A DNA stretch of 64,000 nt from an uncultured Planctomycetia bacterium. GTDB taxonomy: Bacteria > Omnitrophota > Gorgyraeia > Taenaricolales > CAZCCH01. Below are positions 16,241 through 64,000 of this stretch, one piece after another. The translations under genes and the position numbers were made by a program. The stretch lies in assembly GCA_964497315.1 (NCBI GenBank), contig CAZCCH010000007.1:4503-68502 (forward strand). Reading direction: 5' to 3'. The notes beneath the pieces were generated by a model. That model did not search any database. It saw nothing but the letters and a program-made list of their open reading frames with translations, and had not been told where the DNA came from. Position 1 is the stretch's first letter, and each line of letters opens with the position of its first letter.

Positions 16241-16332
16241 GATTTATTAACGAAAAAGACCAAATTTGGCAAAATAAATCTAATTTGCCTTTAACGTATT
16301 TGCACTTATTAACTAAAATAAAAGGTGAATTT

Positions 16333-17085
16333 ATGAATTGGAATCAAATTGTTGAAAAAACTAAACCATATATTGTAAAAATTAGAACGCCAGCAGGAAG
16401 TGGCACAGGCTTTCTTTGCCTTTATGATGAAGCCAAAAAATGGTGCGGTATAGCAACTGCCTTGCATGTCGTAGAGGATGCAGATGAATGGCGACAACCT
16501 ATCAAGATAATACATCAAGAATCGCCTGAACAATTTTTTTTAAACGATCCAGACAGAGTTATATTTTCAGATTGGAAAACAGATTCAGCAATTATTTTCT
16601 TCCCAAAACCCAAAGGATCTCGATTGCCGGATAGCCTCATTCCTTTACGCCCTCTAGATAATTCATTAGATATTGGGTCCGAAGTGGGATGGATGGGTTT
16701 TCCGTACCTTGAACCGCATACGTTATGTTTCTTTTCCGGCTGTATTAGTGCTCGGAGAGAATATAGGAAAGCTTATCTTATTGATGGCGTTTCAATTAAT
16801 GGTGTAAGCGGTGGTCCCGTGGTACATTCAGTAGAAACAGAAAAAATAGAAATCATAGGGATCATTTCTGCCTATGTAGCAAACAAGGCAACTGGAGCAA
16901 CATTACCAGGATTGTCTATTGCACAAGATGTCACCCATCTTCACAGCGTGGTCCAAACTATAAAATCTATAGAGGAAGCAAGGAGAAAGAAGCAACAATT
17001 GAAAGAAAAAGAAAAGAACGGTAAAACAGCTATTCAACACCCAAAGCCTAACCCCGAGACTCCTGAAAACGCAACAGATCGGTGA
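16333..17085 (+). CDS. Trypsin-like (S1 family) serine peptidase
   Basis: His block GTGFLCLYDEAKKWCGIATALHVV. Ser block GVSINGVSGGPVV (GxSGG). Start set at ATG 16333 (MNWNQ...); the ORF track begins at 16285. Confidence 0.6.
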   Translation: MNWNQIVEKTKPYIVKIRTPAGSGTGFLCLYDEAKKWCGIATALHVVEDADEWRQPIKIIHQESPEQFFLNDPDRVIFSDWKTDSAIIFFPKPKGSRLPDSLIPLRPLDNSLDIGSEVGWMGFPYLEPHTLCFFSGCISARREYRKAYLIDGVSINGVSGGPVVHSVETEKIEIIGIISAYVANKATGATLPGLSIAQDVTHLHSVVQTIKSIEEARRKKQQLKEKEKNGKTAIQHPKPNPETPENATDR

Positions 17086-40973: not shown

Positions 40974-42062
40974 ATGATGAATAAATTATCGAGTTTCTTT
41001 ATCGTGCTTAAAAAAGGTTTGCTTTTCTGGATGGCCAAAAAGAATAGAGTTTTTTGTAAAGCGCTAAATCCAAAGCCAAACAGTGCAAGTTTCAGGATAA
41101 CGGAACGCTGTAATTTACGGTGCATAATGTGCGGAATTTGGAAGAAACAAACTGGCGATGAGCTGACCACTGAACAGGCAAAGATTATTATAAAACAGAT
41201 TGCGGATATAGGCGTTAGGCAGTTAAGTTTTACTGGCGGAGAGCCGTTTACAAGGCCGGATATATACGATTTAGTCCTGTATTCAAAAAATATGGGGCTT
41301 GAAGTTGGGCTTGGCACTAATGGCCTGTTAATCAACGAGGATAATGCCACAAGGCTTTTGGAATGCGGCTTGAATACAATCGCGATATCGATCGATGGCC
41401 AAAAGATAAACCATGATTATATAAGAGGGGAAGGTTCTTTTGAAAAATCCTTAGCCAGTTTAAAATTATTAAGTACCCTGCGCAACAAATATAGTTTTAA
41501 TTTAAAAGCTTCATTTACAATAATGCAAAGAAATCTAGATGATATCTTGCCTTGCGTGCATTTATTAACCGCTATTAAAAATGTAACCGTGCATTTCAAT
41601 CTCCTGGATTTCACTCCTTATCATTTTAGGCACAGCAAAAATGAGGATTTGATTCTTAATGATTTCAAAAAGTTAGATAACATTTTAGATAACTTGTTGA
41701 TTTTAAAAATGCAAAAACATTTTTTACTTGATATTAATCGCACTTTTATAGACTTCGCAAAAAGATATTTCAGAGATCATAGACAGCAAAAAATTCCATG
41801 TTGCTTGGGATATCTGCGGCTTCATATTGACAGTTCCGGTCAGCTGTTGCCCTGCTGGGCTATGCCGCCAGTGGCTGATTTGAAAACAAAATCATTGAAA
41901 AAAGTATTAAGGGGCAGGTTTTACAAAGATTATTTATTTCAAATGCTTAACAAAAAATGCCCGGGGTGTTCATGCGCAACTGTCAATAATGCAGCACACT
42001 ATTTACCCGGGGTGTTTGAAAGAAATATGAGGCTATTATTCAAAACATGGAAAAGCCGTTAA
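40974..42062 (+). CDS. Radical SAM protein with SPASM/twitch-like C-terminal Cys cluster
   Basis: CNLRCIMCG (CX3CX2C). C-terminal CCLGYLRLHIDSSGQLLPCW...CPGCSC. Confidence 0.7.
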   Translation: MMNKLSSFFIVLKKGLLFWMAKKNRVFCKALNPKPNSASFRITERCNLRCIMCGIWKKQTGDELTTEQAKIIIKQIADIGVRQLSFTGGEPFTRPDIYDLVLYSKNMGLEVGLGTNGLLINEDNATRLLECGLNTIAISIDGQKINHDYIRGEGSFEKSLASLKLLSTLRNKYSFNLKASFTIMQRNLDDILPCVHLLTAIKNVTVHFNLLDFTPYHFRHSKNEDLILNDFKKLDNILDNLLILKMQKHFLLDINRTFIDFAKRYFRDHRQQKIPCCLGYLRLHIDSSGQLLPCWAMPPVADLKTKSLKKVLRGRFYKDYLFQMLNKKCPGCSCATVNNAAHYLPGVFERNMRLLFKTWKSR

Positions 42063-47055: not shown

Positions 47056-48147
47056 ATGTTTTTGAATTTGCATGATTTGTTAACTTTAAAAATTGTAAAT
47101 TGCCCTGAAGCATTTAAAAAATTTATTTGTGATAATTTTCAATTTCAGATTTATGAAAACTCGGGACAAAAAGGGCCTTCATTGGAGTTTGTTGACAAAC
47201 TGCCGGTCCAGAAACCTGTTTATTGCCTAACCGCAGACACTGGTTACTACGCAGACAACTTTTTCATTATTGACTATAATAACAATAAGCTTGTAGTCCC
47301 CTTTGATTTGGATATTTGTAACTGGTGTTTGAAGTGCGAGAAGGATTTTGACCCGTTACGGCTTTATAATTTAATTGATGCCCTTGTTTTTCAATTTACT
47401 TTGTTTGAATGCAACTGCGCCTTTGTTCATGCCTCCTCGTGCGTAGTTAAGGGAAAGGGGGTGGCCATAAGCGGATGGAAAAAAACCGGTAAGACAGCTA
47501 TTGTGCTAAAGTACTTGTTTCAGGGCGCACAATTTATTTCGGATGATCATTGCATTGTTTCAAAGCAGGGCGAGATGTTTTCTTATTTGAGGCCGACATA
47601 TATACCATATGCCGCCTTGGACGATTTCCCACAATTAAAAAGAAAGATTCCTTTTCGCCTTCAGGCTAAAATCCCTATCAAGAAAATATGGGATCAGGCC
47701 TATAGATGTATGCCCAGAGGCAAGACGGTGGCAACGAAAATGTCTGATGTATTCAACAATTTGGCGCAGTTGCACTCGAATATCCCTATAAATTTTAAAA
47801 CGCTGTTTCCAAATTCGCTTACAGCGACTAAATTTGATCTACAGCTGTTTTTCTATATCAAAAAGTGGAATGGAGAAGATATATATTGTCAGAAGGTTGA
47901 TAAGCGGGTGCTTTCCGGGCGCCTTGCCCATTCAAGCAGATATGAATACAGGAGTTTTTTTGATTATTATCAAATATATCGTACCGCATTTCCTGACAGG
48001 GATAATGTCATGTTCAGAGAGTATGAATCTCGAATTGCCAATATCAGTTACGAGGCGCTTAAAAAGGCAGATTGTTACGATGTGCATATTCCGGCAGACG
48101 GCAATATTATTGAAGTAGCGGATTATCTTTACGAGAAGTTTCTATAA
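47056..48147 (+). CDS. HprK-related (HPr kinase C-terminal-like) protein with degenerate P-loop, embedded in the GT cluster
   Basis: CAFVHASSCVVKGKGVAISGWKKTGKTAIVLKYLFQGAQFISDDHCIV parallels HprK HA..v...g.GvLi.G.SG.GKS..al.L...G..lvaDD. Confidence 0.5.
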   Translation: MFLNLHDLLTLKIVNCPEAFKKFICDNFQFQIYENSGQKGPSLEFVDKLPVQKPVYCLTADTGYYADNFFIIDYNNNKLVVPFDLDICNWCLKCEKDFDPLRLYNLIDALVFQFTLFECNCAFVHASSCVVKGKGVAISGWKKTGKTAIVLKYLFQGAQFISDDHCIVSKQGEMFSYLRPTYIPYAALDDFPQLKRKIPFRLQAKIPIKKIWDQAYRCMPRGKTVATKMSDVFNNLAQLHSNIPINFKTLFPNSLTATKFDLQLFFYIKKWNGEDIYCQKVDKRVLSGRLAHSSRYEYRSFFDYYQIYRTAFPDRDNVMFREYESRIANISYEALKKADCYDVHIPADGNIIEVADYLYEKFL

Positions 48148-51314: not shown

Positions 51315-52262
51315 ATGAAATTGCTGATGTTACTTTTAAAACTTTTTCCAAAAAGAGCGCAGGTTGAAATAACTACCCGGTGCAATTTAGATTGCAAGAT
51401 GTGCCCGCGCTCAAGATATGGCATAAAACCGATGGATATGTCATTGGGAGCGTTTAAGAAGATACTGGATAAGCTTTCTTCCGTAAAAGAGATTACGATA
51501 TCCGGATGGGGTGAGCCGTTACTTCATCCCGATCTTGAAAAAGTAATAGATTATTGCTTGGAGGAAGGTAAGAAAATTAAGCTGACTACCAATGGGTTGT
51601 TGATTAATGATGCAAATTTAAAATATTTGATAAAGATAGATGAGATTACATTTTCCATAGACCAACTGGATGATGATAAACATTTAACCTTAGGGCATTG
51701 TCAGAAGATAGCGATTGAGAATATAAGAAAGCTTGCAGGGCAGAGAATTGGCAAAAAACTGCATATCAGGATACAATCGGTATATTACAGGGAGAATAAG
51801 AGAGATATTCTGGAAATAATCAAAATGGCAAAAGAATTGGGAATTGATTCTGTCAAGGTGATGCGAATTAACCCGCGCTACGGCCCGCCCGGGGCTTTTC
51901 CAAATATTTCACGAAATGAGCTTTTAGAATTTTATGGAGAAGCGAATAAATTCGCAAAGGCGTTAAAAATGAGAGTAGACTTCGTAAACTATGCCTTTTT
52001 CAAAGGTGCAGCAAGGATTATACACAAAATAAGCATGTTTTTTATCCTCCCGGCTTTAAAAATTTACTGCACAAGGGTTCTCAATTTTATTTATGTAAGA
52101 GTGGATGGGAAGGTAAGCCCCTGCGGCGGGATACGCGATTACATCATTGGCGATTTGTCAAAAGAAGACCTTGGGGCTATATATAAGAGCGAGAAAGTTC
52201 AGGATTATAGAAAGAATTATTTGGAGATTTGCAAAGGTTGTAGTTTTATGATTGACCACTAA
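51315..52262 (+). CDS. Radical SAM protein with twitch/SPASM-like C-terminus
   Basis: CNLDCKMCPRSRY. C-terminal SPCGGIRDY...CKGCSFM. Confidence 0.65.
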   Translation: MKLLMLLLKLFPKRAQVEITTRCNLDCKMCPRSRYGIKPMDMSLGAFKKILDKLSSVKEITISGWGEPLLHPDLEKVIDYCLEEGKKIKLTTNGLLINDANLKYLIKIDEITFSIDQLDDDKHLTLGHCQKIAIENIRKLAGQRIGKKLHIRIQSVYYRENKRDILEIIKMAKELGIDSVKVMRINPRYGPPGAFPNISRNELLEFYGEANKFAKALKMRVDFVNYAFFKGAARIIHKISMFFILPALKIYCTRVLNFIYVRVDGKVSPCGGIRDYIIGDLSKEDLGAIYKSEKVQDYRKNYLEICKGCSFMIDH

Positions 52263-53019
52263 AATGGCAAAAGATATGAAAATTCCTATAGTATTCTATC
52301 ATTCGCTTTGTGAAGAAAAAAGCGGCAATAAGTATTGCCTTGATAAAGATAAGTTTGAAAGCCAAATTTCCTATTTGGCCAAACACAGTATTGAGGTTCT
52401 ATCGGTATATGATGCGATGAATCTAAATAAGGCGCCTTTGAGCACCAACCCTGCTGTTATGGTTGCGTTTGACGATGGATGCGCAAGCCTGTTTAATTAT
52501 GCCTATGCGATTTTGAACAAATTTAACTTTAAAGCCCATATATTTATCGCGACAGACTTCATAGGCAAAGAAGGATATCTACAATGGGACCAGATTGTAA
52601 AATTGCATAAAGATGGCTTTATAATAGGTTCACATGGCCATTCGCATAGAAATCTCGCGACCTTGGGGAGTGAAGATATTTGCCGCGAATTACAAATTTC
52701 CAAATCGTTGTTGCAAGAAAAGCTGAATGTGAATATAGACATAGTTTCGCTTCCTCACGGAGGTTTCGATAAACATGTACTGGAGGCTATTGAGGAGACC
52801 GGTTTTAAAGCTGCTTTTACTTCAGTTCCTACGTATGGCATTTCTTGCGAAAATCTTTATGTATTTGGAAGATTTGCGATTCTTGCCAATACTAGCCAGG
52901 CTAAATTTGAAGCAATCGTGAATCACCGTCTGCGGGTTTTTGTTGCGGAGAACTGTTTTTATAGGATGAAAAAGCTTATTAAGCCGGTTTTGAAAATACT
53001 TAAAAGAGGACAAATATGA
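52252..53019 (+). CDS. Polysaccharide deacetylase (CE4/NodB homology domain)
   Basis: VMVAFDDGCASL (Asp-Asp metal motif) and IIGSHGHSHRNL (His-His). Confidence 0.8.
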   Translation: MTTKMAKDMKIPIVFYHSLCEEKSGNKYCLDKDKFESQISYLAKHSIEVLSVYDAMNLNKAPLSTNPAVMVAFDDGCASLFNYAYAILNKFNFKAHIFIATDFIGKEGYLQWDQIVKLHKDGFIIGSHGHSHRNLATLGSEDICRELQISKSLLQEKLNVNIDIVSLPHGGFDKHVLEAIEETGFKAAFTSVPTYGISCENLYVFGRFAILANTSQAKFEAIVNHRLRVFVAENCFYRMKKLIKPVLKILKRGQI

Positions 53020-54464
53020 AGATAACATTTTTGGTGCCTCCGATTTTACAGGGTACGAGAATAGCCGAAAGAGTAGCCGGTTGTTCTTATGTCCTTTATG
53101 ATGTCCCAAATATTTTCATGGTTTTGTTCGCTGCGGTTGCCAGAGATGCTGGCCATGAGGTTTCATATGTAGATTTTCCTGTGATGAAGAAAAGAAGAGA
53201 TGATTTTTTAAATTTCTTGAAAAATGATGATAGCCATGTTTATTTCATTTTTACAGTTGAGCTATCTGTGCAGACAGATATTCTGGCGCATCAATTGATA
53301 CGGCAAACAAGAGGAAATATCCCTTTGATATTCGCGGGCCCGGCCCCTTCACATCGTCCGGAGACGTTTTTGAAAGATGCCTATACCTATATTGTAAGAG
53401 GAGAGCCGGAGCGAACCATGATAGAGTTATTGGTTACCCTGGATACAAAGGGCGATTTTAGTCAGGTCAAAGGATTAAGTTTTATTAAAGACAGAGAAGT
53501 TGTTCATAACCTTCCGCGGGAATTAATAAAAAATTTAGACGATTTGCCGTTTCCTGCCAGAGATTTGGTGGATAAAAGTAAAGGCATGTATTTTAACCCA
53601 AAATTAAGAATTAGGCCGGTTACTTTAGTGCTAGGATCGAGGAATTGTTCCTATAGATGCATCTATTGCGTACCGTGCGCGTTAACTTTTGCGATAGAGA
53701 TAGAATATAAACGTTATTTTAAAAAGAAACCACCGGTGAGGCTTAGAAGTGCTCAAAATATTATTTCAGAGTTTAATTTGCTGAAGAAACAAGGGTACAA
53801 GGCAGTTGTTTTTCAGGATGACATTTTTATTTGGGAAAAACAGAGAACCATCGAATTCTGCCGCGGAATTAAAAATGTGGGCATAGTCTGGGGTTGCCAG
53901 GCGAGGGCAGATCATCTTTCCGAAGACTTGCTGAAGGAGATGGCTCAATCTGGGTGTAGGTATATTGATATCGGCATTGAATCATTCAATCAGGAAATAT
54001 TGGATGCTGTGAGAAAAGATTTAAAGGTGGAGGACTCTATCAGAGCCATAAAACTTATCAAGAAATATGGCATAGACGCGAAGATAAATATCATATTCGG
54101 AGCCACGCCACTGGAGACAAAGAAGACGATAAACCATACCAGAAAGATGGTAAAGAAGCTTAAGGTGAGTCAAGTCATGTATTCAGCATGTGCGCCATGG
54201 CCCGGCACTGAACTTTACGATATAGCCAAGAAGCAAGGATGGTTTGTTGATGGCGACTATAGGCCAAGCGATGGAGATAGAGAATCCATCATACAATTTC
54301 CCCATTTATCCAAAAAAGAGCTGGAATCTTTATTGAAAAAGGCAAATTTGGAATTCTTTTTAAATATTCGATTTATAATGAGAAATATTTTCAAAACCGG
54401 CTTGTTCAATGTCGCCAACCTTGTGGATTCTGTTAAGGCCGTATTCAGGAAAATAAGATGGTAA
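53016..54464 (+). CDS. Class B (cobalamin-binding) radical SAM enzyme, likely C- or O-methyltransferase-type
   Basis: N-terminal Rossmann-like B12-binding region. CSYRCIYCVP cluster. 482 aa. Confidence 0.7.
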   Translation: MKITFLVPPILQGTRIAERVAGCSYVLYDVPNIFMVLFAAVARDAGHEVSYVDFPVMKKRRDDFLNFLKNDDSHVYFIFTVELSVQTDILAHQLIRQTRGNIPLIFAGPAPSHRPETFLKDAYTYIVRGEPERTMIELLVTLDTKGDFSQVKGLSFIKDREVVHNLPRELIKNLDDLPFPARDLVDKSKGMYFNPKLRIRPVTLVLGSRNCSYRCIYCVPCALTFAIEIEYKRYFKKKPPVRLRSAQNIISEFNLLKKQGYKAVVFQDDIFIWEKQRTIEFCRGIKNVGIVWGCQARADHLSEDLLKEMAQSGCRYIDIGIESFNQEILDAVRKDLKVEDSIRAIKLIKKYGIDAKINIIFGATPLETKKTINHTRKMVKKLKVSQVMYSACAPWPGTELYDIAKKQGWFVDGDYRPSDGDRESIIQFPHLSKKELESLLKKANLEFFLNIRFIMRNIFKTGLFNVANLVDSVKAVFRKIRW

Positions 54465-55477
54465 AATTAGTCAGGATTTCTGATGAGTTAGCTTGTAGAT
54501 GGGATTCTTTAATAGGGAATTATTCCAGTAAAAGATTATTCCACAACATGGCGTGGCTGAATTACCTGGAGAAGAGCCAAAATGGTAAAAAACTGATTTT
54601 TGAAATAAGAGACAACAGTAGATTGGTCGGTTACTTTTGCGCTTTGAGTATAAAAAAGGGACCCTTTAAGATACTTGGAAGCCCGCTACGCGGGTGGAAT
54701 ACATTTGAGATGGGACCTATAATGAATAGAAATCTCAACCAGATTGATGTTGTTCAGGCAATAAGTGATTATGCGAAAAACAATGAATATTCTGTATTGG
54801 AGTTGAGTAATTCATTATTAGAGCCGAAGGTTATGAGGGCAGCAGGTTTTAGTTTTTACAAAAAGTACACATATGTTGTTAAGCTTATGCCGGGTGAAAA
54901 AGAGAGGATGTTCGAAAATTTAACAAGTGTTTGCCGTAATAGAATACGCAAAGGAGTCAATAATAAGTTATCTGCGAAGGATATCAGTCATCCAATTGTA
55001 GCCGAGCGATATTATACCCTGTTAAAAAAGGTATTTTTCAAAAAATGGTTAGCACCCCCGTATAAAAAAACGAAAGTAAATTTACTTTTTGAAATACTTA
55101 AACCGGTAGGAATGCTGATCTCCATGCAGGTAAGTACTTTAGCAGGTGAAATTATTGCCATAGGGCTGTATCCTCATGATAATCGAACGTTGTTTTTTTA
55201 TGGTGGAGCCAGTAAGGGCACGCGCAACCATCTTTATCCCAATGAACTATTGCATTGGTCTGCTATGTTGGAAGCATCCAATATGGGAATAGAATCTTAT
55301 GATATGGGTGGTGTGACGTCAAAAGAGAAAAGCGGTATAGATAAATTCAAGCGTAAGTTCGAAGGCAGAAAGGAAGAGATTTTGCATTGGCAAAAATTTT
55401 ATTCACCCGTTGCCAAAGCGGCATATTCTTCATATAGGGCGTTAATATTTTTAAGGCAAAAAATATTTTTTATATAA
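54458..55477 (+). CDS. FemAB-like / GNAT-fold acyl- or aminoacyl-transferase (tentative)
   Basis: HNMAWLNYLEKSQNGK. About 340 aa two-lobed architecture of the kind common in EPS loci. Confidence 0.4.
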   Translation: MVKLVRISDELACRWDSLIGNYSSKRLFHNMAWLNYLEKSQNGKKLIFEIRDNSRLVGYFCALSIKKGPFKILGSPLRGWNTFEMGPIMNRNLNQIDVVQAISDYAKNNEYSVLELSNSLLEPKVMRAAGFSFYKKYTYVVKLMPGEKERMFENLTSVCRNRIRKGVNNKLSAKDISHPIVAERYYTLLKKVFFKKWLAPPYKKTKVNLLFEILKPVGMLISMQVSTLAGEIIAIGLYPHDNRTLFFYGGASKGTRNHLYPNELLHWSAMLEASNMGIESYDMGGVTSKEKSGIDKFKRKFEGRKEEILHWQKFYSPVAKAAYSSYRALIFLRQKIFFI

Positions 55478-56438: not shown

Positions 56439-57038
56439 TTGATTAGAGTAAATTTGGCATTAAAGAGGTTTTTCGATATTCTGTTTTCTCTATTTGGTTT
56501 AATGGTTTCTTCGATGTTATGGATCATTATTTCAATGGCCATTTATATAGAGGATGGCGGACCCGTGCTTTTTGCAGATATGCGCGTAGGTAAAGATAGG
56601 CGATTGTATAGACATTTTAAATTTCGGACTATGAAGAAGGAAGCAGAGAGGACAACTGGGCCAATTTGGTCGACAAAAGAAGATAGGCGAATAATAAAAG
56701 TAGGGCGGTTTCTAAGAGCTACAGCTATAGATGAACTACCACAGTTGATAAATATCCTAAAAGGGGATATGAGTTTTGTTGGACCAAGGCCTGAGAGGGA
56801 ACATTTTGTAAATAAATTCACAAAAGAAATCCCAGGTTATCAAAGACGATTTTGCATTAGACCGGGACTGACCGGCATGGCCCAAGTTTATGGTAAGCAT
56901 GATAGTTTACCAGAGAAGAAGTTGAAGTATGATTTGGAATACATAGATAGACAGAGCGTTCCCCTGGATCTTAAATTGATATTTTTATCATTTCTAATAA
57001 CGTCCAAAGCAGGGTGGGAAAAATTTGAAAAGACTTAA
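56439..57038 (+). CDS. Priming phosphoglycosyltransferase (small bacterial sugar transferase, WcaJ/EpsB C-terminal-type)
   Basis: RFFDILFSLFGLM..., MRVGKDRRLYRHFKFRTM, DELPQLINILKGDMSFVGPRPE. Confidence 0.85.
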   Translation: MIRVNLALKRFFDILFSLFGLMVSSMLWIIISMAIYIEDGGPVLFADMRVGKDRRLYRHFKFRTMKKEAERTTGPIWSTKEDRRIIKVGRFLRATAIDELPQLINILKGDMSFVGPRPEREHFVNKFTKEIPGYQRRFCIRPGLTGMAQVYGKHDSLPEKKLKYDLEYIDRQSVPLDLKLIFLSFLITSKAGWEKFEKT

Positions 57039-57326
57039 TCAGAAATATTGATTCTGGGTTTAAACTTATAAGAAAAGAAGTAATCGATGATGTTTTGGAT
57101 GATGTAGTGAAAATGAAACACTGTGTAATGTCAGAGTTTATTTTAAAGACGTATCTTATATGAGAGAAACAGAATAAAATCTATAAAAGAATTAAAAACT
57201 TCAAAACCAGCATTTATTGTTATTTCACGAAGCCATTTTGTATCATCTCATGCTGATGAACGAAAGTCTTTTCCAGAATTTTTTGGCTTTGTAGAAGAGC
57301 ATTGCCATTTATCTAAAACCATAGGC

Positions 57327-58475
57327 TTGTTGGATATATACGAGAATAACAAGAGGAAGAGCAGAATAGTGAAAAGGGTTTCTAACATTGTTATCATTGG
57401 AGCTGGTCCGATAGGCTGCTATACTGCACAATTACTAAAGAGAAAAGGTATTAACCCTGTTCTAATTGAAGAGCATAAGCAGATAGGCAGACCTGTTCAT
57501 TGTGCCGGAGTATTAGGTAGTCAGGTATTTAGCAATATGCAATTGCCCATACCTGAGAAATCTATCAAAAATAGAATCGATGGAGCTATAATTGCCCATG
57601 ATAAGAAGAGCTTTGAAATTAAGAGAAAAGGCGTAGCATTTGTAGTTGACAGGGAAGTATTTGATAAAGAGCTTGGAAAAGGATTGGATGTTAATTTTGA
57701 AACCAAATTTATTGGCTTTGAAAAGAATAAAAAAGGTTATTTGATAGAAACAGACAAAGGAGAGTTTAAAGCAGATATATTGATAGGTGCTGACGGTGCA
57801 AGGTCTCACGTCAGAGAGGTAGGAAATTTCAAGGCGAACATTACTTATAAAAGAGGGGTTCAATTTAGAATAAAAACCAAATTGGACCTAGGGAGTTTCG
57901 TTGAAGTTCACTTAAGGAAACCATATTTTTCATGGCTTATACCTGAAGGCAAGGGAATAGTCAAGGCAGGTATTATTTCTGACAACCCCTACCACGACCT
58001 TGTAGAATTTCTAGATAAACGCAAGATTAAAGGTAAGATATTGAATAAATTTGGTGGTCTTGTACCCAGAGGTAACTGTCAGACTACAGATGGGAGCGTT
58101 GCCCTGATTGGTGATGCTGCTTGCCAGGTCAAGCCTTTGAGTCAGGGTGGTATTTATTATGGGATGAAATGCGCAGAGATTTTAGTGCACTGCATAAAGA
58201 ATGGCAGGTTAGGTGATTATGATAAAGAATGGAAAAAGCAGTTTGGCAGAGAGATGCAGATTAGCTCGAAGATTAAAAAGTTTTATGAAGGTTTAAATGA
58301 TGGCGATCTTGAGCAGGTATTTGATTTGATTAGAGAAAATTCAGGTACGATAGAAAAATTAGGGAATTTCGAGAATCATTCTTTTGTTATATTGAAAATA
58401 ATGAAAAATCCAAAAACGCAAAAAAAGATCGGTGTTATATTATGGAATTTAATGAAGAAGAGAATGCTGGGATAA
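57327..58475 (+). CDS. FAD-dependent oxidoreductase (geranylgeranyl-reductase / flavin-dependent dehydrogenase family)
   Basis: Rossmann VIIGAGPIGCYTAQLL. GDAACQVKPLSQGGIYYGM. Separated from the EPS array by a 288-nt gap. Confidence 0.65.
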   Translation: MLDIYENNKRKSRIVKRVSNIVIIGAGPIGCYTAQLLKRKGINPVLIEEHKQIGRPVHCAGVLGSQVFSNMQLPIPEKSIKNRIDGAIIAHDKKSFEIKRKGVAFVVDREVFDKELGKGLDVNFETKFIGFEKNKKGYLIETDKGEFKADILIGADGARSHVREVGNFKANITYKRGVQFRIKTKLDLGSFVEVHLRKPYFSWLIPEGKGIVKAGIISDNPYHDLVEFLDKRKIKGKILNKFGGLVPRGNCQTTDGSVALIGDAACQVKPLSQGGIYYGMKCAEILVHCIKNGRLGDYDKEWKKQFGREMQISSKIKKFYEGLNDGDLEQVFDLIRENSGTIEKLGNFENHSFVILKIMKNPKTQKKIGVILWNLMKKRMLG

Positions 58476-59548
58476 TCGTAGCAGAGAAAAAGAACCCAAG
58501 GCTTTCAATTATATATGTCTACCTTATGAATAGCTGCAACCTTAACTGTATCCATTGTTGGGTTAATCCATCCTTTACAAGAGAAAAAGAGAAAAAAAAT
58601 CACCTAAGTATTACAAAGTTTAAGAAGATATTTGACCAAGCAGTTAAATTAGGCTTAAAGAAGGTAAAATTGACTGGTGGAGAGCCACTCATATACCCGC
58701 ATTTCGTAGAACTTGTTGAGTACTTGAAGGAACAAAAAATCAATATCACTATGGAAACCAATGGTACGCTTATAACTGAGAAGATTGCAGATGCAATTAG
58801 AGATTCCAGTTTTTACCACGTAGCTGTTAGTTTAGATGGGGCAGGGCCTAAGACCCATGAGAGGGTACGTCGTGTAAAGGGTGCGTTTAATAAAACATTA
58901 GAGGGGGTCAAGAGATTGACATCCAGGAAAATTCCTACCCAGATAATCATGTGTGTATATAAAGATAATATGCAAGACATAGAGGCTGTAGCGAAACTAG
59001 CTCAGGATATAGGCGCCAATACTTTGAAGTTAAACTACATAAATATTCTGGGGCGCGGTAGGTTTATGAAAGAAGAGGGCGAGCTTCTTTCTGTTAAAGA
59101 AATAATAGAACTTGACCGTCACATCATGGAAAAGGTTTCTGAAAAATATAAAATTGGCTTTTATTCAAATACTCCTATGGCATTCGAATCCTTAAGGGAT
59201 CTTAGGCGAAGACATGGCACATGCCATATCCAGAACATATTGGGCATATTGGCAGATGGCAAGGTATCAATCTGTGGCATAGGAGAGGAGGTTAAAGAAT
59301 TGGTTCTGGGTGATGCTACAAAAACTCTCTTGACGGAAATATGGAGTCAGAATTCTATTCTGCATTATATAAGAGAAAATATCCCCAATCAGCTGGAAGG
59401 TGTATGTAGCAGATGTATTTTTAAAAGAAAATGCCTAGGTTGTTGTATTGCCGAGACTTATACCAGAACAGGAGATTTCAAAAGCCCTTTCTATTTTTGT
59501 CAAAAGGCCTATGAGGAGGGTGTTTTCCCGCAGTCGAGGTTGGTGTGA
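58442..59548 (+). CDS. Radical SAM/SPASM-domain enzyme (peptide-maturase / anSME-like architecture)
   Basis: CNLNCIHCW. Auxiliary clusters CGIGEE and CSRCIFKRKCLGCCIAETY. 368 aa. Confidence 0.75.
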   Translation: MEFNEEENAGIIVAEKKNPRLSIIYVYLMNSCNLNCIHCWVNPSFTREKEKKNHLSITKFKKIFDQAVKLGLKKVKLTGGEPLIYPHFVELVEYLKEQKINITMETNGTLITEKIADAIRDSSFYHVAVSLDGAGPKTHERVRRVKGAFNKTLEGVKRLTSRKIPTQIIMCVYKDNMQDIEAVAKLAQDIGANTLKLNYINILGRGRFMKEEGELLSVKEIIELDRHIMEKVSEKYKIGFYSNTPMAFESLRDLRRRHGTCHIQNILGILADGKVSICGIGEEVKELVLGDATKTLLTEIWSQNSILHYIRENIPNQLEGVCSRCIFKRKCLGCCIAETYTRTGDFKSPFYFCQKAYEEGVFPQSRLV

Positions 59549-59557
59549 GGCGATAAA

Positions 59558-59851
59558 ATGTTAACTGCAAAAAGATATATCCGGATTAACAAGAATATGC
59601 TTGAAGTTGGATTTTCTAAAGAGAAGATTATTGGAAAGGTTGTCAGGAATAGATTTTGTTCACCGTGCCTTTTGAATTACACATCCAGACTTATATGGGA
59701 TGAGCTAAAGAGACCTTGCGCAATCGAAAGACTGGCAGAGAAACTAAAGAGAAGGTTTTTAATCAGCAGAAAAACAGCTATAGATGATACAAAAAGGACA
59801 ATCAATATATTGGAAAAAAGAGGTTTTGTAAGGGAGTGCAACAGAAAATAG
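59558..59851 (+). CDS. PqqD-family protein (RiPP recognition element-like), copy 1
   Basis: 97 aa. RLIWDELKRPCAIERLAEKLKRRFLISRKTAIDDTKRTINILEKRGFV fits the PqqD pattern (W..l.g..tv.ei...l...y.v......Dv..fl..L...gli). Confidence 0.6.
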   Translation: MLTAKRYIRINKNMLEVGFSKEKIIGKVVRNRFCSPCLLNYTSRLIWDELKRPCAIERLAEKLKRRFLISRKTAIDDTKRTINILEKRGFVRECNRK

Positions 59852-59863
59852 GAGGCAGCTATT

Positions 59864-60136
59864 ATGGATAAAGCCATAAGACCTAGAAGAAAACCGAATA
59901 TAATCTCAAGACAAGATGAAGAAAGGCTTTTATGTAATACTGAAAATGGTGACATTAAAGTTTTGAACAGCACAGGTGCTTTAATGTGGGATTTGTGTGA
60001 TGGAGAACATGCAATGGGTGACATTTTAGACGAAATAACCAAGAAATTCAAGGTTAAAAAAGAAGTTGCCGAGACAGATTTGAAAGAATTTCTTGAAGCA
60101 CTAGAGAAACTGAATTTTATAAATATGGGAGGATAA
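59864..60136 (+). CDS. PqqD-family protein (RiPP recognition element-like), copy 2
   Basis: 90 aa. VLNSTGALMWDLCDGEHAMGDILDEITKKFKVKKEVAETDLKEFLEALEKLNFI. Confidence 0.7.
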   Translation: MDKAIRPRRKPNIISRQDEERLLCNTENGDIKVLNSTGALMWDLCDGEHAMGDILDEITKKFKVKKEVAETDLKEFLEALEKLNFINMGG

Positions 60137-60140
60137 TTAT

Positions 60141-61193
60141 TTGAAACTGCACGCCCCCTTGTCAATTTGCCTATGTATAACTAATAAGTGCAACCTTTCC
60201 TGTAAACACTGCTTTGTCGGGGACAGGCCTGATGCTGAACCTGATCTTACGCGCCAAGAGATGCTGGACTTGATAGATGAGTTTGGCAAATACAAGGTTT
60301 TTGGTACTACCGTCTTTGGCGGAGAACCATTCACCAGTCCTTATATATATGAATATATGGATGCTTTAAAAAAATATAAGATAAAATTGGGACTGAATAC
60401 TAACGCGACGCTTATTAAAAGAAAAGATGCACAAAAGCTGAAGCACGAGTATGGTGTTGAAAACATATGCGTTAGCCTTGATGGTTCCTCGCCTGATATT
60501 ATGGATAAGACGAGAGGGGCAGGTTCTTTCAATAGGGTATTGAGAGGTATAAAGCTTTTAATAAGTGAAGGCCATGAGATATTATTAGGTACGACCATAA
60601 CAAAACTTAACTACATGGATGCAGAAAATATAGTTAAACTCGCCAAAGATATAAATGCCAAAGGAGTACGTTTTAACCATGTATTCTTTACCGGGAATGC
60701 AAGCTGTTTTATGAAAGAAGTATACCTTGACCTAAAAGATGAAGTTCAAATCTTAGATAGAGTTTATAATCTATACAAAAAATATGGAAATTTTATCACA
60801 GGATCTTACCTGTCCCAGAGGAAAAAACTCATGAAGCTGGAAAAGTTTCCACCCAAGCATGATAAAATTAAAGTTTCACCTTGCGGGGCAGGAAAGACAA
60901 GATATGTCATAAGGGCTGACGGTTGGGTTGTACCGTGTGAGATCTTATGGAATGTAAAAGTAGGCAATGTCAGAAAGCAATCCCTGCGCGAAATCTGGTT
61001 TTCTAAAGGCATGGAGGAATTTCGTAAGCCTCTTACTATAGATCTTGAGGATATGCCTGAGTGCAAAGGATGTAAATATCAATATATGTGTTTCCATGGA
61101 CATCGTTGCTGGCCATATTATTATCCTAATGGCATGGAAGATAGAAAGCTACATTGCTGGAAGAGGTTAAATGAAGAAACCGTTCTATGTTAA
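60141..61193 (+). CDS. Radical SAM/SPASM-domain enzyme, second copy
   Basis: TTG start with GGAGGA RBS. CNLSCKHCF. Auxiliary CGAGKTRYVIRADGWVVPCE and CKGCKYQYMCFHGHRC. Confidence 0.75.
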   Translation: MKLHAPLSICLCITNKCNLSCKHCFVGDRPDAEPDLTRQEMLDLIDEFGKYKVFGTTVFGGEPFTSPYIYEYMDALKKYKIKLGLNTNATLIKRKDAQKLKHEYGVENICVSLDGSSPDIMDKTRGAGSFNRVLRGIKLLISEGHEILLGTTITKLNYMDAENIVKLAKDINAKGVRFNHVFFTGNASCFMKEVYLDLKDEVQILDRVYNLYKKYGNFITGSYLSQRKKLMKLEKFPPKHDKIKVSPCGAGKTRYVIRADGWVVPCEILWNVKVGNVRKQSLREIWFSKGMEEFRKPLTIDLEDMPECKGCKYQYMCFHGHRCWPYYYPNGMEDRKLHCWKRLNEETVLC

Positions 61194-62166
61194 TATTGCA
61201 GAGATGACATTAAAGGTGGAGGGTGAGTATCCCCGGTATTTACTCAATGCATATGAGGCCTTTATGGCCACTTCCGCAATTAATAAGCCTTTTATATTAG
61301 AATATGTCGATTGGCAAAGAAAGCCAAAATACCAGGGCCATCAAAATTTAGAAACAATAAATACCACTTTGCATAAAAACCTTGAAGGAATTTCAAGTGC
61401 TCCAATTAAAAATAGACTAAAAAAAACACAATTTCTCCTGCCACTTTTAGCTGAAAACTCCATTATGTGGAACAGATACAGTCGTCTTCCTGCTTCGAAA
61501 AAGAAATCATTGCTGATCAGCAAATTTCTTTTTACATATAATAAGAATAATTTCTCTTTTTATCGATGGGGAGCCGGGAGTTTATTCATAGACCATTATT
61601 TGCGGCAGGCAAAATTTGTTATATTTGAGCATAGTGAATATCGCAAAGCCATGGGTATCCCCATGAAGGTTATAGTGAGGGATATGCTTGGTGGAAAAGG
61701 GTTTTTGCTGCATGCAGCAGGCCTGTTACAAGATAACAATGCGTATATTTTTGCAGGTAATTCAGGTGAAGGTAAATCTACCATAACTAACATACTAGCC
61801 CATAAATGCATCTTGAGCGATGAAACCATCATAGTTAAAAAAAGAGAGGGAGTTTATATTGGCCATTCAACCCCCTGGAACAGTCAAGGTCGCTTTAATC
61901 ACGTAAGTGCCAGCGGGCCAATTAAGGCGTGCTTTTTTATAAAAAAGTCCAGAAGGGTATATTTTAAGAGTATTTCACCGGCCAATACGTTTTTGAGATT
62001 AGCGGATAATATGACACATATTCCAGCGAAAAGTAGGACTCAACTGAAGACCCGATTAAACATGCTTGCAGATTTTAGCAAGAAGACTTGCTTTTACCAA
62101 ATGTATTTTAGAAAAGATGATTATTTCTGGACCAAACTCAAAAAACAGGTCATAGATGCAAGATAA
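61171..62166 (+). CDS. HprK-related kinase-like protein (HPr kinase C-terminal-domain fold, intact P-loop)
   Basis: GFLLHAAGLLQDNNAYIFAGNSGEGKSTITNILAHKCILSDETIIV. Confidence 0.6.
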   Translation: MKKPFYVNIAEMTLKVEGEYPRYLLNAYEAFMATSAINKPFILEYVDWQRKPKYQGHQNLETINTTLHKNLEGISSAPIKNRLKKTQFLLPLLAENSIMWNRYSRLPASKKKSLLISKFLFTYNKNNFSFYRWGAGSLFIDHYLRQAKFVIFEHSEYRKAMGIPMKVIVRDMLGGKGFLLHAAGLLQDNNAYIFAGNSGEGKSTITNILAHKCILSDETIIVKKREGVYIGHSTPWNSQGRFNHVSASGPIKACFFIKKSRRVYFKSISPANTFLRLADNMTHIPAKSRTQLKTRLNMLADFSKKTCFYQMYFRKDDYFWTKLKKQVIDAR

Positions 62167-64000
62167 AGAAAAAGATATTTTAAATAGCTCAAAGTATCTA
62201 CGTTTTTACATAACAACGGCCAGTATGTACCCCGCATTGCAGGTTGGGGATATAGTAATAGTAAGAAAGACATCACTCAGAGAGATTAAAAAAGGAGATA
62301 TAATTACCTTCAATGCAAAGAATAAAACGACTAAATTGACACACAGGGTGATAGGTGTAAAAAAGGGCGAAGGCATATTGAAGTTGCATACCAAAGGAGA
62401 CAGTGCTATTAGTGAAGACTCTTGTCCTGTGACTGAAGATAGTTTAGAGGGTAAGGTTATAGCAGTAATCAGGAAAAATAGCATAATAGAAGTAGGTACT
62501 AGAGGTCAGCGCAGAAAGGCCTGCGTATCTGAAAACCTACAACTGCTAAAAAAGCTTAAGCATCAGCTGTCAGACCAAATTAGAAAGCTTGTATTTATTA
62601 TATTTTTTGGCCTTTTGGTAAGCTTGACAGCTGCCTTCCTGCCTTATCTGTCGAAGCCAATGATTGATATAGGTTATGGCGATAAAAATATCAAGATGGT
62701 TTTAATAATAGCTGCTTTAGCGACAGCAGCCTTTATCTTAAATGCAGTCCTTAAGTCAACTTTTCAGTTTCTTTCCAGCCGCTTGCAGCAAAAGTTGTTA
62801 TTTGAATTTGACCAGGCATATATACAAAAATTATATTTTTTGCCTGTTTCTTATTTTACCACAACCTCTACTGGAGAACAGCTATATAGACTCAATAGTA
62901 ATGCAAGCGCGCTATCAGGTCTTATTGCCTCTAAATTTCCAAAGTTGCTGACCGTGGCTTCAAAGACACTTTTTTATTTAATGCTTGCGTTTGCAATTAA
63001 TTTCAAACTAGCTCTTTTGTTAGTACTATTTTTACCGCTTTTTATCTGGAGGTCCGCGTATTTTCGGAGGAAAGGTTTGGCTGAATATAAGAGATCAGTT
63101 TATTTATCCCAGGGTGTCTCCAAAAAAATGCAGGATGTTTTATCTAAGATCTATCTTATGAAGGCATTGGGTGCCGAAGAGCATGAGAGGAGGAATTATG
63201 CCGACCTATTAAGACGCAAGGTCCAATTAAACCTGAAAATTGCCAGTTTGCGGGTACTAAATACATTAACATCAACTTTTTTAAGTAGAGCAGCCTTAAC
63301 TATTTTGGGCCTAGTGGGTATGTTATTGGTTATAAAAGAGGTTATGACTTTAGGCAGCCTTACTGCTTTTATAGCTTATTGTGGCCTGTTTTTGTCAGCT
63401 ACTATGAGCCTAACTAATAGTATTGAAAATATTTCTAAAGACAGTGTTCATGTAAGCAGATATTTTGAGATTATGGATATGGATGCAGGGGCAAAAGAGA
63501 AAGCAGGAGCTAAGTACATTTACCCGTTCAAAGGCAAGATAGAATTTCAGGATGTGTCTTTTGGCTATGATAAAGACAAGTTGATCCTGGAGAATTTTAA
63601 TATGCAAATTCAACCAGGCAGTTGGGTATTGATAAAAGGAACCTCTGGTTGCGGCAAGACTACCTTACTAAAATTAATTTTAAGGTTTTATGACCCCAAG
63701 AAAGGAAAGGTCCTTATAGATGATATAGACATTCAGGATATAAAGGTTCGTTCGTTGAGGGATAATATTGCTATTGCGATCCAGGATGTAATGCTTCTGA
63801 ATGAAAGCGTGAGAGATAATATAACTTATGGACTATCAAATAAGACGTTGGAGGACATAAGAGACGTTGCACGGGCGGCCTGCATAGACTCGTTTATTCA
63901 AACGCTTCCAGATGGATATGATACAATGGTGGGTGAAAATGGGGCATGCCTTTCAAAGGGACAGAAACAAAGAATTTGTCTGGCGAGAGCACTAATCCGA
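62156..64000 (+). CDS. SipW/Sec11-type (S26B, Ser-His) signal-peptidase domain fused to an ABC exporter (TMD + NBD); 3'-partial
   Basis: Absent from the ORF track because no stop occurs in the window. ATG 62156 overlaps the upstream stop. Peptidase boxes TASMYPALQVGDIVIV, THRVIGV, LHTKGDSAISEDSCPV parallel B. subtilis SipW SGSMEP..GD, THRI, TKGDNN..D..V. Six-TM region follows. Walker A GTSGCGKTTLLKLI and signature LSKGQKQRICLARALI. Confidence 0.75.
   Translation, partial: MQDKEKDILNSSKYLRFYITTASMYPALQVGDIVIVRKTSLREIKKGDIITFNAKNKTTKLTHRVIGVKKGEGILKLHTKGDSAISEDSCPVTEDSLEGKVIAVIRKNSIIEVGTRGQRRKACVSENLQLLKKLKHQLSDQIRKLVFIIFFGLLVSLTAAFLPYLSKPMIDIGYGDKNIKMVLIIAALATAAFILNAVLKSTFQFLSSRLQQKLLFEFDQAYIQKLYFLPVSYFTTTSTGEQLYRLNSNASALSGLIASKFPKLLTVASKTLFYLMLAFAINFKLALLLVLFLPLFIWRSAYFRRKGLAEYKRSVYLSQGVSKKMQDVLSKIYLMKALGAEEHERRNYADLLRRKVQLNLKIASLRVLNTLTSTFLSRAALTILGLVGMLLVIKEVMTLGSLTAFIAYCGLFLSATMSLTNSIENISKDSVHVSRYFEIMDMDAGAKEKAGAKYIYPFKGKIEFQDVSFGYDKDKLILENFNMQIQPGSWVLIKGTSGCGKTTLLKLILRFYDPKKGKVLIDDIDIQDIKVRSLRDNIAIAIQDVMLLNESVRDNITYGLSNKTLEDIRDVARAACIDSFIQTLPDGYDTMVGENGACLSKGQKQRICLARALIR

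Follow-up and report, generated by a model that had tools for sequence, protein, structure and literature searches.

Which of the genes at the end of this stretch of DNA belong together, and what do they act upon? In the window, by which we mean the whole 64,000 nucleotides analysed here, positions 57327-64000 hold seven codirectional, tightly packed ORFs. The first-pass annotation had read all seven as one cassette for the modification and export of a peptide, with no visible precursor, joined to an exopolysaccharide locus. The packing and the shared direction are as it described, but the first of the seven, a flavoprotein gene, goes with the polysaccharide genes. The other six encode a ScmF-like protein, two PqqD proteins, a ScmE-like protein, a ScmC-like protein, and a fusion of an S26 peptidase with an ABC exporter. 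We conclude that positions 58442-64000, together with about 400 bp past the window's end, very probably form a divergent SynChlorMet (SCM)-type RiPP cassette, that is, an ordinary RiPP cluster, of a kind that is known though uncharacterised, whose exporter fusion is unusual.

SynChlorMet is a widespread family known only from its in silico definition (TIGR04248-04252), which consists of the precursor ScmA (TIGR04252), ScmC (TIGR04249, and also Pfam PF27840), ScmD (TIGR04248), ScmE (TIGR04250) and ScmF (TIGR04251); a literature search found no experiment on any SCM cassette. When the window proteins are compared with the NCBIfam profiles, the best-matching family of every enzyme comes from the SCM set. 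None of the SCM models reaches its curated cutoff, and the ScmA model has no match at the window cassette.

The ScmF-like radical-SAM/SPASM maturase (58442..59548, plus strand) scores 363.7 bits against TIGR04251 (cutoff 400), with the next family at 154 bits, and it has more than 1000 homologues, many of which bear the ScmF or SCM name. It contains the motif CNLNCIHC followed by CX9-15GX4C and CX2CX5CX3-5C, and the Cys columns are invariant in its alignment (A1). For the ScmE-like maturase (60141..61193, plus strand) the best family is TIGR04250, at 163.9 bits against a cutoff of 400; the protein is 66% identical to its homologue in L090 and 52% identical to that in L097. Both radical-SAM proteins carry CX3CX2C, CX9-15GX4C and CX2CX5CX3-5C, with the SPASM Cys motifs intact, and both exceed the PF13186 SPASM gathering score of 21.5 (29.9 bits for the ScmF-like and 51.6 bits for the ScmE-like protein). 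Between them on the plus strand lie two PqqD-family genes, the first encoding an RRE-type protein (59558..59851) and the second a ScmD-like one (59864..60136), which score 30.1 and 54.4 bits against PF05402 (gathering score 23.4). The second also scores 37.1 bits against the TIGR04248 ScmD model, whose cutoff is 100. Tandem PqqD pairs are shared with the nearest relatives (L090, L097, L062). Thus, both the two radical-SAM/SPASM enzymes and the two tandem PqqD proteins named by the first-pass annotation are borne out.

The gene that follows (61171..62166, plus strand) had been described as HprK-related and kinase-like. It encodes a putative peptide kinase, a P-loop protein of the HprK/PEPCK type; the P-loop and a weak HprK_rel_A match (29.6 bits, cutoff 200) agree with that description, but ScmC fits better, with 36.9 bits against TIGR04249 (cutoff 125) and a precomputed PF27840 ScmC match. 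The HPr-rel-A naming that had been suggested for such systems likewise gives way to the SynChlorMet cassette, which is the better match. A profile of 49 ScmC sequences, compared with the PDB, finds the P-loop cores of PEPCK and HPr kinase at E values of about 1e-6. In the ScmC-like protein H181, G201 and K202 are invariant, and T204 and D217 nearly so; its structure model has a pLDDT of 33 and is unusable. The HprK-like kinases of lasso-peptide clusters phosphorylate precursor peptides, and a His-Lys-Asp-Asp motif has been reported for them (PMC9266682); the conserved His, Lys and Asp of ScmC agree with that motif.

The last gene (62156..64000, plus strand) is cut by the window's end; in full it runs to window-equivalent 64222 and codes for a protein of 688 aa (L001 10986-13052). 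It joins an S26 peptidase of the SipW/archaeal type to an ABC exporter, with the domains Peptidase_S26 (PF10502), ABC_membrane (PF00664) and ABC_tran (PF00005). Residues 1-135 score 80.6 bits against TIGR02228 (cutoff 51.85), and for the ABC part the TIGR01193 and TIGR03796 models give 228-280 bits, below their cutoffs. The S26 residues S23, H63 and D82 recur in P0245, a second, partial peptidase-exporter fusion from another organism, which is 45% identical through TM1-2. No hydrophobic segment was found before residue 141 of the window fusion, and predicted TM segments are absent in 43 of 46 SCM-linked S26 proteins. Since no membrane anchor stands ahead of the S26 domain, which lies N-terminal to the exporter's TM1, the domain is predicted to be on the cytoplasmic side.

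We compared 80 genome loci, and used the 36 in which ScmF has 5 kb or more of sequence on either side to count partners. Among these 36 loci, ScmE and PqqD are each found in 32, ScmA and an S26 peptidase each in 29, ScmC in 28, and an ABC exporter in 24, while NTP_transf_5 (PF14907) is found in 20 (and in 32 of all 80). Given these counts, the pairing of S26 peptidase with ABC exporter is normal for the SCM family, and only the fusion is rare. Of the novelty that had been seen in a signal-peptidase/ABC partner, therefore, only the fusion is left.

What, then, is the substrate? A search of the window with a profile of cassette-linked precursors reaches E=1.9 at best, in keeping with the earlier statement that no precursor is visible there. 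However, 169 bp past the window's end lies a ScmA-like precursor gene of 76 aa (window-equivalent 64169-64399, minus strand; L001 12999-13229), with the sequence MKEEKQEYIPPKIEGLFPLSKSIAQCMLGEIGDALCDEGEAPDGGPCGGGSVPPTQPTCSPGDIAEACGDGYTVTE. The precursor profile matches this ORF at E=1.2e-7 and 29.6 bits, the next best segment scoring 6.5 bits. The TIGR04252 ScmA model has no match to it, and members of the small-ORF family match that model weakly. The gene converges on the exporter gene, with a 54-bp overlap of the two 3' ends; a precursor lies on the opposite strand in only 5 of 75 cases. It has a start codon, an AAGGA-type ribosome-binding site and, upstream, a promoter-like site TTGACA-17-TAAACT, it is identical across L001, L002 and L003, and public records annotate it as a gene (P0397; L003). 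Immediately past it, an ISNCY transposase adjoins the cassette.

Precursors of this family have the leader consensus K-YE[KP]PxLxxLG, with 18-22 residues from the leader Tyr to the first Cys and with Gly/Ala prevailing at -2 and -4 before that Cys; 84% of core Cys are in CxxG (against an 18% Gly background), and the mode of the Cys spacing is 10. The ScmA-like ORF conforms to every one of these family rules. It carries the family leader as EYIPPKIEGL and a cleavage-like site SIA/QC (the stroke marking the cut), and all five of its Cys are in CxxG, at spacings of 10, 11, 12 and 9 residues. Among 2139 six-frame segments, it alone has more than one CxxG unit chained. Similar precursors are found in the nearest relatives (L097 9572-9910, L089 7843-8151, L022), that of L089 having CSGGEAPDPG-type units. 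Of the readings first offered, that of a RiPP with its precursor off-window is upheld. In the relatives the cassette comes with a defined small precursor related to neither surface nor EPS genes, the finding that had been named in advance as the mark of an ordinary RiPP cluster, and here the precursor is just off-window.

A proper ScmA-type precursor adjoining the cassette also bears on another of those readings, in which the substrate of the enzymes is not a small peptide but a large protein, for example the giant surface protein (11-7699) with its Cys tail. Radical-SAM/SPASM enzymes can indeed act on proteins (anaerobic sulfatase maturase, QhpD), and the giant protein has Cys in its conserved tail. 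However, a CFI-box-CTERM domain (NF041770, 97.6 bits) makes up that tail, which shows neither a precursor-profile match nor CxxG periodicity, and the giant protein is about 50 kb away; we regard maturation of a large protein as extremely improbable. The locus might instead be a rearranged, non-functional remnant of transposition beside the ISNCY element, as the transposase past the precursor, the atypical gene order, the inverted precursor and the absence of NTP_transf_5 (which 20 of the 36 loci have) would suggest. Yet five assemblies, made from different samples and 99.9% identical, carry every cassette ORF undamaged, and the catalytic motifs (radical-SAM/SPASM Cys, P-loop, S26 Ser/His/Asp) are intact. 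The order ScmF-PqqD-PqqD-ScmE-ScmC is shared with L090, a 65% identical relative, and the fusion is kept at 45% identity in another organism. A decayed locus is thus very unlikely, and we retain the SCM-type RiPP cassette.

Upstream of the cassette, a priming polyprenyl-phosphate sugar transferase (56439..57038, plus strand; TIGR03025 EPS_sugtrans, 256 bits; PF02397 Bac_transf) is the last glycosyltransferase of the polysaccharide locus and stands outside the peptide cassette. As the first-pass annotation stated, that locus contains three further radical-SAM genes and an HprK-like gene, the latter a weak HprK_rel_B match (33.9 bits, cutoff 200). The flavoprotein (57327..58475, plus strand) is a geranylgeranyl-reductase-family FAD protein (TIGR02032, 164.4 bits, cutoff 158.8). 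Its homologues, at 49-73% identity, lie inside polysaccharide loci without Scm genes in five contig contexts (L093/L094, L095/L096, L100, L101, L102), and a GGR-like match is near only 2 of the 80 SCM loci, and weak. Judged by these sequence neighbourhoods, the flavoprotein is a gene of the polysaccharide locus and not a member of the cassette.

Might the two nevertheless be functionally coupled, with the modified peptide, for example, attached to the polymer or co-secreted with it as a matrix component? The start codon of ScmF falls 34 nt within the flavoprotein gene, the last of the polysaccharide locus, so co-transcription is possible, and no terminator-like site was found between the two genes. 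The HprK_rel_B-like and radical-SAM genes of the polysaccharide locus also speak for coupling, as do the few other SCM loci near polysaccharide genes (Wzz-type in 8-9, GT2 in 5-6). Conversely, only 3-8 of the 80 SCM loci have nearby homologues of the window's proteins for polysaccharide export and priming (Poly_export 6, Wzz 8, GT2 6, Bac_transf 3). The bridging flavoprotein closes or sits in Scm-less polysaccharide loci in the five contexts above, L093 has a different gene at the same docking position, the cassette encodes an exporter itself, and a separate promoter-like site precedes its precursor. On these comparisons the link looks like one of neighbourhood and not of shared function, and the suggested coupling to polysaccharide export is unlikely.

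For the SCM-type cassette, we infer the peptide chemistry, kinase activity, cleavage site and topology as follows. The PqqD proteins would bind the short leader (EYIPPKIEGL) and present the core to both radical-SAM enzymes, which would modify each C-x-x-G unit of about 10 residues, most likely yielding an intramolecular Cys-derived crosslink of the sacti/ranthipeptide thioether type. By analogy with the HprK-like kinases in lasso-peptide clusters, ScmC would use ATP, probably phosphorylating the peptide. The S26 domain, on the cytoplasmic side, would cut the leader at the small-x-small site that precedes the first Cys by one residue (SIA/QC), after which the ABC part would export the product. 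The logic would resemble that of a peptidase-containing ABC transporter (PCAT), with a Ser/His S26 protease replacing the C39 Cys protease. Upstream, the flavoprotein and the polysaccharide locus would be neighbours, probably transcribed together with the cassette, and not functional parts of it.

How does this cassette compare with known systems? With other SCM cassettes it shares the best-matching family for each enzyme, a precursor built alike (a short YE[KP]P leader and CxxG repeats of about 10 residues), and, as in most related loci, an accessory S26 peptidase and ABC exporter. It differs in that no score reaches its curated equivalog cutoff, two PqqD genes stand where the others have one, and the order is ScmF-PqqD-PqqD-ScmE-ScmC instead of the common ScmD-ScmE-ScmF-ScmA-ScmC. 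In addition, its precursor is convergent, with an acidic, Pro-rich core instead of a Ser/Thr/Ala-rich one, its peptidase is fused to the exporter, and NTP_transf_5 is absent. The sactipeptide, ranthipeptide and related radical-SAM/SPASM maturases with recognition of the PqqD type (AlbA, PapB, QhpD, PqqE/PqqD) likewise combine a radical-SAM core and full SPASM signature with a separate RRE protein and a repetitive, Cys-rich core peptide. The homology, however, is weak (PapB 76-80, AlbA 68-93 and QhpD 74 bits, far under those families' cutoffs), and the window cassette holds two paralogous maturases.

ScmC resembles the lasso-cluster HprK-like kinases (PadeK/ThcoK, PsmK/PsmN) in its P-loop GxxGxGKS/T, in its conserved His, Lys and Asp, and in the fit of its profile to the HPr kinase core; PF14907 at 32 of 80 SCM loci recalls the nucleotidyltransferase that accompanies the lasso kinase. 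In contrast, its kinase activity is only putative, and the window has neither lasso cyclase or protease genes in the cassette nor a nucleotidyltransferase at the locus. HPr-rel-A systems (TIGR04352/04353) share the PqqD partner, but ScmC falls far from the HprK_rel_A cutoff (29.6 against 200 bits). The peptidase domain passes the model cutoff for SipW/archaeal-type signal peptidase I (TIGR02228) and has its SM(Y)P Ser, HRV His and GD(S) Asp motifs, but it is without an N-terminal membrane anchor, is predicted to be cytoplasmic, and is joined to an ABC exporter and serves a single peptide. Finally, the fusion is like the PCATs (TIGR01193 bacteriocin_ABC, TIGR03796 NHLP exporter) in having a protease domain N-terminal to TM1 of a type-I ABC exporter, and presumably in coupling leader removal to export; it differs from them in using a Ser/His protease of the S26 signal-peptidase type instead of a C39 Cys protease, and a small-x-small leader site instead of a double glycine.

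The last seven genes of the window are codirectional and tightly packed, as had been described in the first-pass annotation and as we find from the ORF list together with a three-frame translation of the window end, and Pfam and NCBIfam scans bear out the domain naming of every gene. The series opens with an FAD flavoprotein of the geranylgeranyl-reductase (GGR) family (57327-58475, +; TIGR02032 at 164.4 bits, cutoff 158.8). It is followed by a radical-SAM/SPASM protein (58442-59548, +) whose top match is ScmF at 363.7 bits (NCBIfam equivalog cutoff 400), the next family scoring 154 bits; by two PqqD-family proteins (59558-59851, +, and 59864-60136, +), both above the Pfam gathering score and the second matching ScmD at 37.1 bits (cutoff 100); and by a second radical-SAM/SPASM protein (60141-61193, +) whose top match is ScmE at 163.9 bits (cutoff 400), the next family scoring 119 bits. 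The last two genes encode a P-loop protein that weakly resembles HprK-related proteins (61171-62166, +; ScmC at 36.9 bits, cutoff 125) and a protein combining Peptidase_S26, ABC_membrane and ABC_tran domains (62156 to beyond 64000, +). Since both radical-SAM proteins carry the CX3CX2C motif along with the SPASM motifs CX9-15GX4C and CX2CX5CX3-5C, the worry that the PqqD and SPASM assignments might fail on closer inspection falls away.

The best NCBIfam match of every cassette enzyme belongs to a single family set, SynChlorMet (SCM; TIGR04248-04252), represented here by ScmF, ScmE, ScmD and ScmC. None of the four scores reaches its curated equivalog cutoff, and the model of the SCM precursor ScmA (TIGR04252, cutoff 35 bits) has no match. 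Because all scores lie under the cutoffs, the cassette is a divergent SCM relative and not an equivalog member by NCBI criteria. ScmF has more than 1000 homologues at E≤1e-20, many of them named ‘SynChlorMet cassette radical SAM/SPASM protein ScmF’. A literature search on SynChlorMet, the Scm genes, the TIGR accessions and PF27840 returned nothing relevant and no experimental paper, and the review and genome-mining literature that we examined does not mention the SCM cassette. Judged by its sequence, the locus is a variant of a known, in-silico-defined RiPP cassette that is uncharacterised by experiment.

The comparison covers 80 genome loci containing ScmF homologues; the window proteins served as queries against these loci, and the leftover ORFs were clustered. 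The sampled loci include Omnitrophota, Desulfobacterota, Chloroflexota, Chlorobi, Planctomycetota, Acidobacteriota, methanogens and others. Partners were counted only where ScmF has at least 5 kb of sequence on either side, which leaves 36 loci. In this set ScmE and PqqD proteins each occur near ScmF in 32 loci, a small-ORF family (ScmA) and an S26 peptidase each in 29, ScmC in 28, an ABC exporter in 24, an NTP_transf_5 protein (PF14907) in 20, and a GGR-like protein in one. Given these counts, the pairing of an S26-type protease with an ABC exporter, which had been taken as a novelty of this locus, is the norm for SCM cassettes.

A metagenome scan with an S26-TM alignment found no relatives, and a second scan yielded one useful relative, L097, a close one whose gene order is S26, ScmF, ScmA, ScmE, PqqD, PqqD, ScmC, ABC. 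Of the other closest relatives, L022 has the same gene set with only one PqqD, and in L089 two precursors with CSGGEAPDPG-type units adjoin ScmC. L090, whose ScmF is 65% identical to ours, shares the order ScmF-PqqD-PqqD-ScmE-ScmC with the present cassette, at which point its contig stops. The ScmF-like ORF of L097 (7045-9570) is about 840 aa long by the longest-ORF rule, which may reflect an N-terminal fusion or an upstream in-frame start. In four loci a protein with HTH and sulfotransferase domains (PF17784/PF13469; for example L036 11443-12444) adjoins the SCM cassette, and it could be a further tailoring enzyme.

The first-pass annotation reported no plausible precursor ORF in the window. 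This stands: a profile of our own, made from 48 small ORFs linked to SCM cassettes, finds no precursor there (best E=1.9), the gap at 57039-57326 holds neither a precursor-like ORF by that profile nor an RNA family by Rfam, and an Rfam scan of 56800-64000 gives no match. Just past the window end, the same profile detects a ScmA-like ORF (L001 12999-13229, equivalent to window positions 64169-64399, minus strand) with E=1.2e-7 and 29.6 bits, the runner-up segment scoring 6.5 bits. Its sequence is MKEEKQEYIPPKIEGLFPLSKSIAQCMLGEIGDALCDEGEAPDGGPCGGGSVPPTQPTCSPGDIAEACGDGYTVTE. The ORF follows all the rules of its family. The family leader motif is present, the leader Tyr stands 19 residues before the first Cys, and a cleavage-like site reads SIA/QC. 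All five Cys are in CxxG units, at spacings of 10, 11, 12 and 9, and the last is followed by an eight-residue tail. No other segment of the 2139 obtained by six-frame translation of the window and L001 has two or more CxxG units in a chain. An AAGGA ribosome-binding site lies 7 nt 5' of the ORF, which also has a promoter-like TTGACA-17-TAAACT site and is called as a gene by independent gene callers. The gene is convergent with the exporter gene, their 3' ends overlapping by 54 bp; such opposite-strand precursors form a minority of the ScmA-like family (5/75). The source contig, from a metagenome, is 70.5 kb long, and its sequence recurs at 99.9% identity in four further assemblies. Because a ScmA-like ORF lies just outside the window and relatives carry comparable precursors, the suggestion of a RiPP with an off-window precursor was right, and the cluster is an ordinary RiPP cluster. 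The ‘missing precursor’ is a window-edge artefact, and this is the chief lesson of the locus for the genome scan.

Right past the precursor gene lies an ISNCY-family transposase (L001 13354-14682, minus strand, equivalent to 64524-65852; 388.8 bits), after which L002, another locus holding the precursor, shows a further giant gene (>1546 aa) on the minus strand.

The small-ORF family comprises 76 matches in 57 loci. Its members have a short leader with the consensus K-YE[KP]PxLxxLG, a distance of 18-22 residues from the leader Tyr to the first Cys, and core units of the form C-x-x-G-[STGN]-[STGA]-[AP]-x3. Gly occupies position +3 of 84% of core Cys, against a Gly background of 18%; Cys-Cys spacing peaks sharply at 10 (range 9-12), five is the commonest number of Cys per peptide, and the peptides terminate 5-9 residues past the last Cys. 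Several members match TIGR04252 at 16-21 bits, below the cutoff, and the family is a broader form of the known predicted ScmA precursor family. Gly and Ala predominate at -2 and -4 before the first Cys. Type I signal peptidases show a cleavage-site preference known as the -1/-3 rule, and the pattern would be that rule if the cut leaves one residue ahead of the first Cys. In L067, a 318-aa open reading segment (3709-4662) matches the precursor profile at E=1.8e-6, and may be either several precursors fused in a row or one long protein of CxxG repeats.

The Cys tail of the giant protein at 11-7699 (at least 2562 aa) had been offered as an alternative substrate. We reject this reading: the tail consists of a CFI-box-CTERM domain (NF041770, 97.6 bits), unrelated to ScmA. 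The next gene after it (7684-8307) encodes a GspC-like PDZ protein (NF041515, 64 bits, below cutoff).

It had also been proposed that the cassette is coupled to polysaccharide export, and here the flavoprotein marks the boundary. Homologues of 49-73% identity are numerous, several of them being named as Omnitrophota proteins, and in five independent contig contexts the homologue lies inside a polysaccharide locus with no Scm genes nearby. That is, it lies directly 3' of a priming transferase with a 4-nt overlap (L093 7411-9098/L094; L095 7432-9098/L096), after Wzz-Wzy_C-TPR (L100 4001-5092; L102 4001-5104), or after sugar epimerases (L101 4001-5119). Because of these Scm-free contexts we take the flavoprotein gene to be the one that closes the polysaccharide locus; in the window, the priming phosphoglycosyl transferase and flavoprotein genes together span 56439-58475. 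We considered it as a RiPP tailoring enzyme (QhpG-like, 37.8 bits) and rejected that candidate, its close homologues being polysaccharide-locus genes without Scm neighbours. In Omnitrophota-like contigs, polysaccharide loci conserve a GGR-family flavoprotein gene, which often overlaps the gene before it by 4 nt. As an idea only, the enzyme could reduce a polyprenyl lipid carrier to a dolichol-like saturated one.

The flavoprotein gene contains a start codon in its 3'-terminal 34 nt, ATG here (58442-58475, opening ScmF) and GTG in L093 (9065-9098), where a 658-aa methyltransferase begins at this homologous internal position, 34 nt before the flavoprotein stop. Since the L093 methyltransferase uses the homologous start, different downstream modules evidently dock at the flavoprotein 3' end, which looks like a reusable site for translational coupling. 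We found no terminator-like site between the polysaccharide genes and the cassette and, because the genes also overlap, co-transcription with the polysaccharide operon is likely. A functional coupling is not supported: of the 80 SCM loci, only 3-8 have nearby homologues of the window's polysaccharide-export and priming proteins (Poly_export, Wzz-kinase, GT2, Bac_transf), and the flavoprotein belongs to the polysaccharide side. The link is one of adjacency. The earlier observation is real and beyond chance, and its interpretation was right in part.

The Wzx/Wzy-type polysaccharide locus does contain, as stated earlier, three further radical-SAM genes, one of the SPASM type and one of a B12-binding type similar to HpnJ, and an HprK-like gene, which encodes a weakly HprK_rel_B-like P-loop protein (33.9 bits); a FemAB-family protein is also present (the five genes lie at 40974-42062, 47056-48147, 51315-52262, 53016-54464 and 54458-55477). 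This is uncommon tailoring content for a polysaccharide locus. By BLASTP, the similarity of its HprK-like protein to ScmC is not significant (E=0.26). In the related contig L093, a separate trio of PqqD, S24/S26-like peptidase and radical-SAM genes (14702-16603) follows another polysaccharide locus at a distance of a few kb.

The ScmC-like protein has a precomputed Pfam match to ScmC (PF27840) and aligns with 48 cassette-linked ScmC proteins, with His181, Gly201 and Lys202 invariant and Thr204 and Asp217 nearly so. Searched against the PDB, a profile of the 49 sequences matches PEP carboxykinase and HPr kinase over 50-80 residues of their P-loop cores (E~1e-6). TIGR04352 (HPr-rel-A), the family named in the first-pass annotation, scores 29.6 bits (cutoff 200). 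A word-indexed homologue search gave two distant relatives only, and an AlphaFold2 model from a three-sequence alignment was unusable (pLDDT 33). The His, Lys and first Asp of a His-Lys-Asp-Asp set are conserved in ScmC, the second Asp being Glu in this locus. ScmC is a putative peptide kinase.

The unusual feature of the locus is its peptidase-exporter fusion, in which the S26 domain and the exporter form one 688-aa protein. The S26 domain passes TIGR02228 (SipW/archaeal-type signal peptidase I; 80.6 bits, cutoff 51.85), and its Ser23, His63 and Asp82 motifs are intact. We looked at the 150 relatives closest to the S26 domain in a set of 1.84 billion representative proteins. Only one of the 150 is another S26::ABC fusion: a partial protein, P0245, whose S26 domain and first two transmembrane helices are 45% identical to ours and which conserves S23, H63 and D82; the remaining long relatives among the 150 show no ABC fusion. 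By Kyte-Doolittle scan only, the fusion has no hydrophobic segment ahead of residue 141, and 43 of 46 SCM-linked S26 proteins lack a predicted transmembrane segment. Because such segments are almost always absent, the SCM-linked S26 proteins look like soluble leader peptidases. The N-terminus of type I ABC exporters is cytoplasmic, and the protease of the fusion should therefore face the cytoplasm. In some SCM loci S26 is fused to NTP_transf_5 instead of the exporter: long NTP_transf_5 ORFs in L075 (17512-19548) and L083 (10280-11959) bear an N-terminal S26/S24-type peptidase domain. In a 515-aa ORF of L086 (7349-8896, minus strand) Pfam detects NTP_transf_5 only.

Taken together, the leader would be bound by the PqqD proteins, ScmE and ScmF would modify each CxxG unit, ScmC would spend ATP on the peptide, and the S26::ABC protein would cut the leader at SIA/Q and export the product. 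In sacti- and ranthipeptides, radical-SAM enzymes put in thioether crosslinks from Cys sulfur to carbon, and Cys-derived crosslinks would be the most plausible modification here. We advance only tentatively, and consider rather unlikely, the fuller proposal that S26::ABC proteins are a new class of leader-cleaving exporter, functionally analogous to peptidase-containing ABC transporters (PCATs) with a cytoplasm-facing Ser/His signal-peptidase domain in place of C39; that SCM peptides are a new RiPP class with one radical-SAM crosslink per 10-residue CxxG unit; and that the peptide is expressed from the tail of the polysaccharide operon and contributes to the cell envelope or matrix.

SCM cassettes are widespread, given the many ScmF homologues and a sample spanning many anaerobic bacterial phyla and methanogens. 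Their precursors offer testable rules: the leader carries YE[KP]P, CxxG units recur every 10 residues, and a small-x-small cleavage site precedes the first Cys by one residue. The cassettes are usually accompanied by an S26 peptidase in soluble form, by NTP_transf_5 and by an ABC exporter. The present locus adds a compact variant with peptidase and exporter in one polypeptide, which is therefore a handy construct for testing the coupling of cleavage to export.

Among known systems, the HprK-like kinases of lasso-peptide clusters have a His-Lys-Asp-Asp motif, act on precursor peptides by phosphorylating them, and are found together with a nucleotidyltransferase homologue (PMC9266682). The frequent NTP_transf_5 partner of SCM loci fits this precedent, whereas the present locus differs in having no NTP_transf_5. 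Unlike SipW/archaeal-type signal peptidase I, the fusion has no N-terminal anchor that would put its catalytic domain outside the cytoplasm. Its S26 domain should instead face the cytoplasm, as the C39 domain of PCATs does; however, this N-terminal domain is of the Peptidase_S26/TIGR02228 type and not a C39 papain-like peptidase, and the leader ends in SIAQ rather than in a double glycine. On these features the S26::ABC fusion would work like a PCAT, without being a member of that group.
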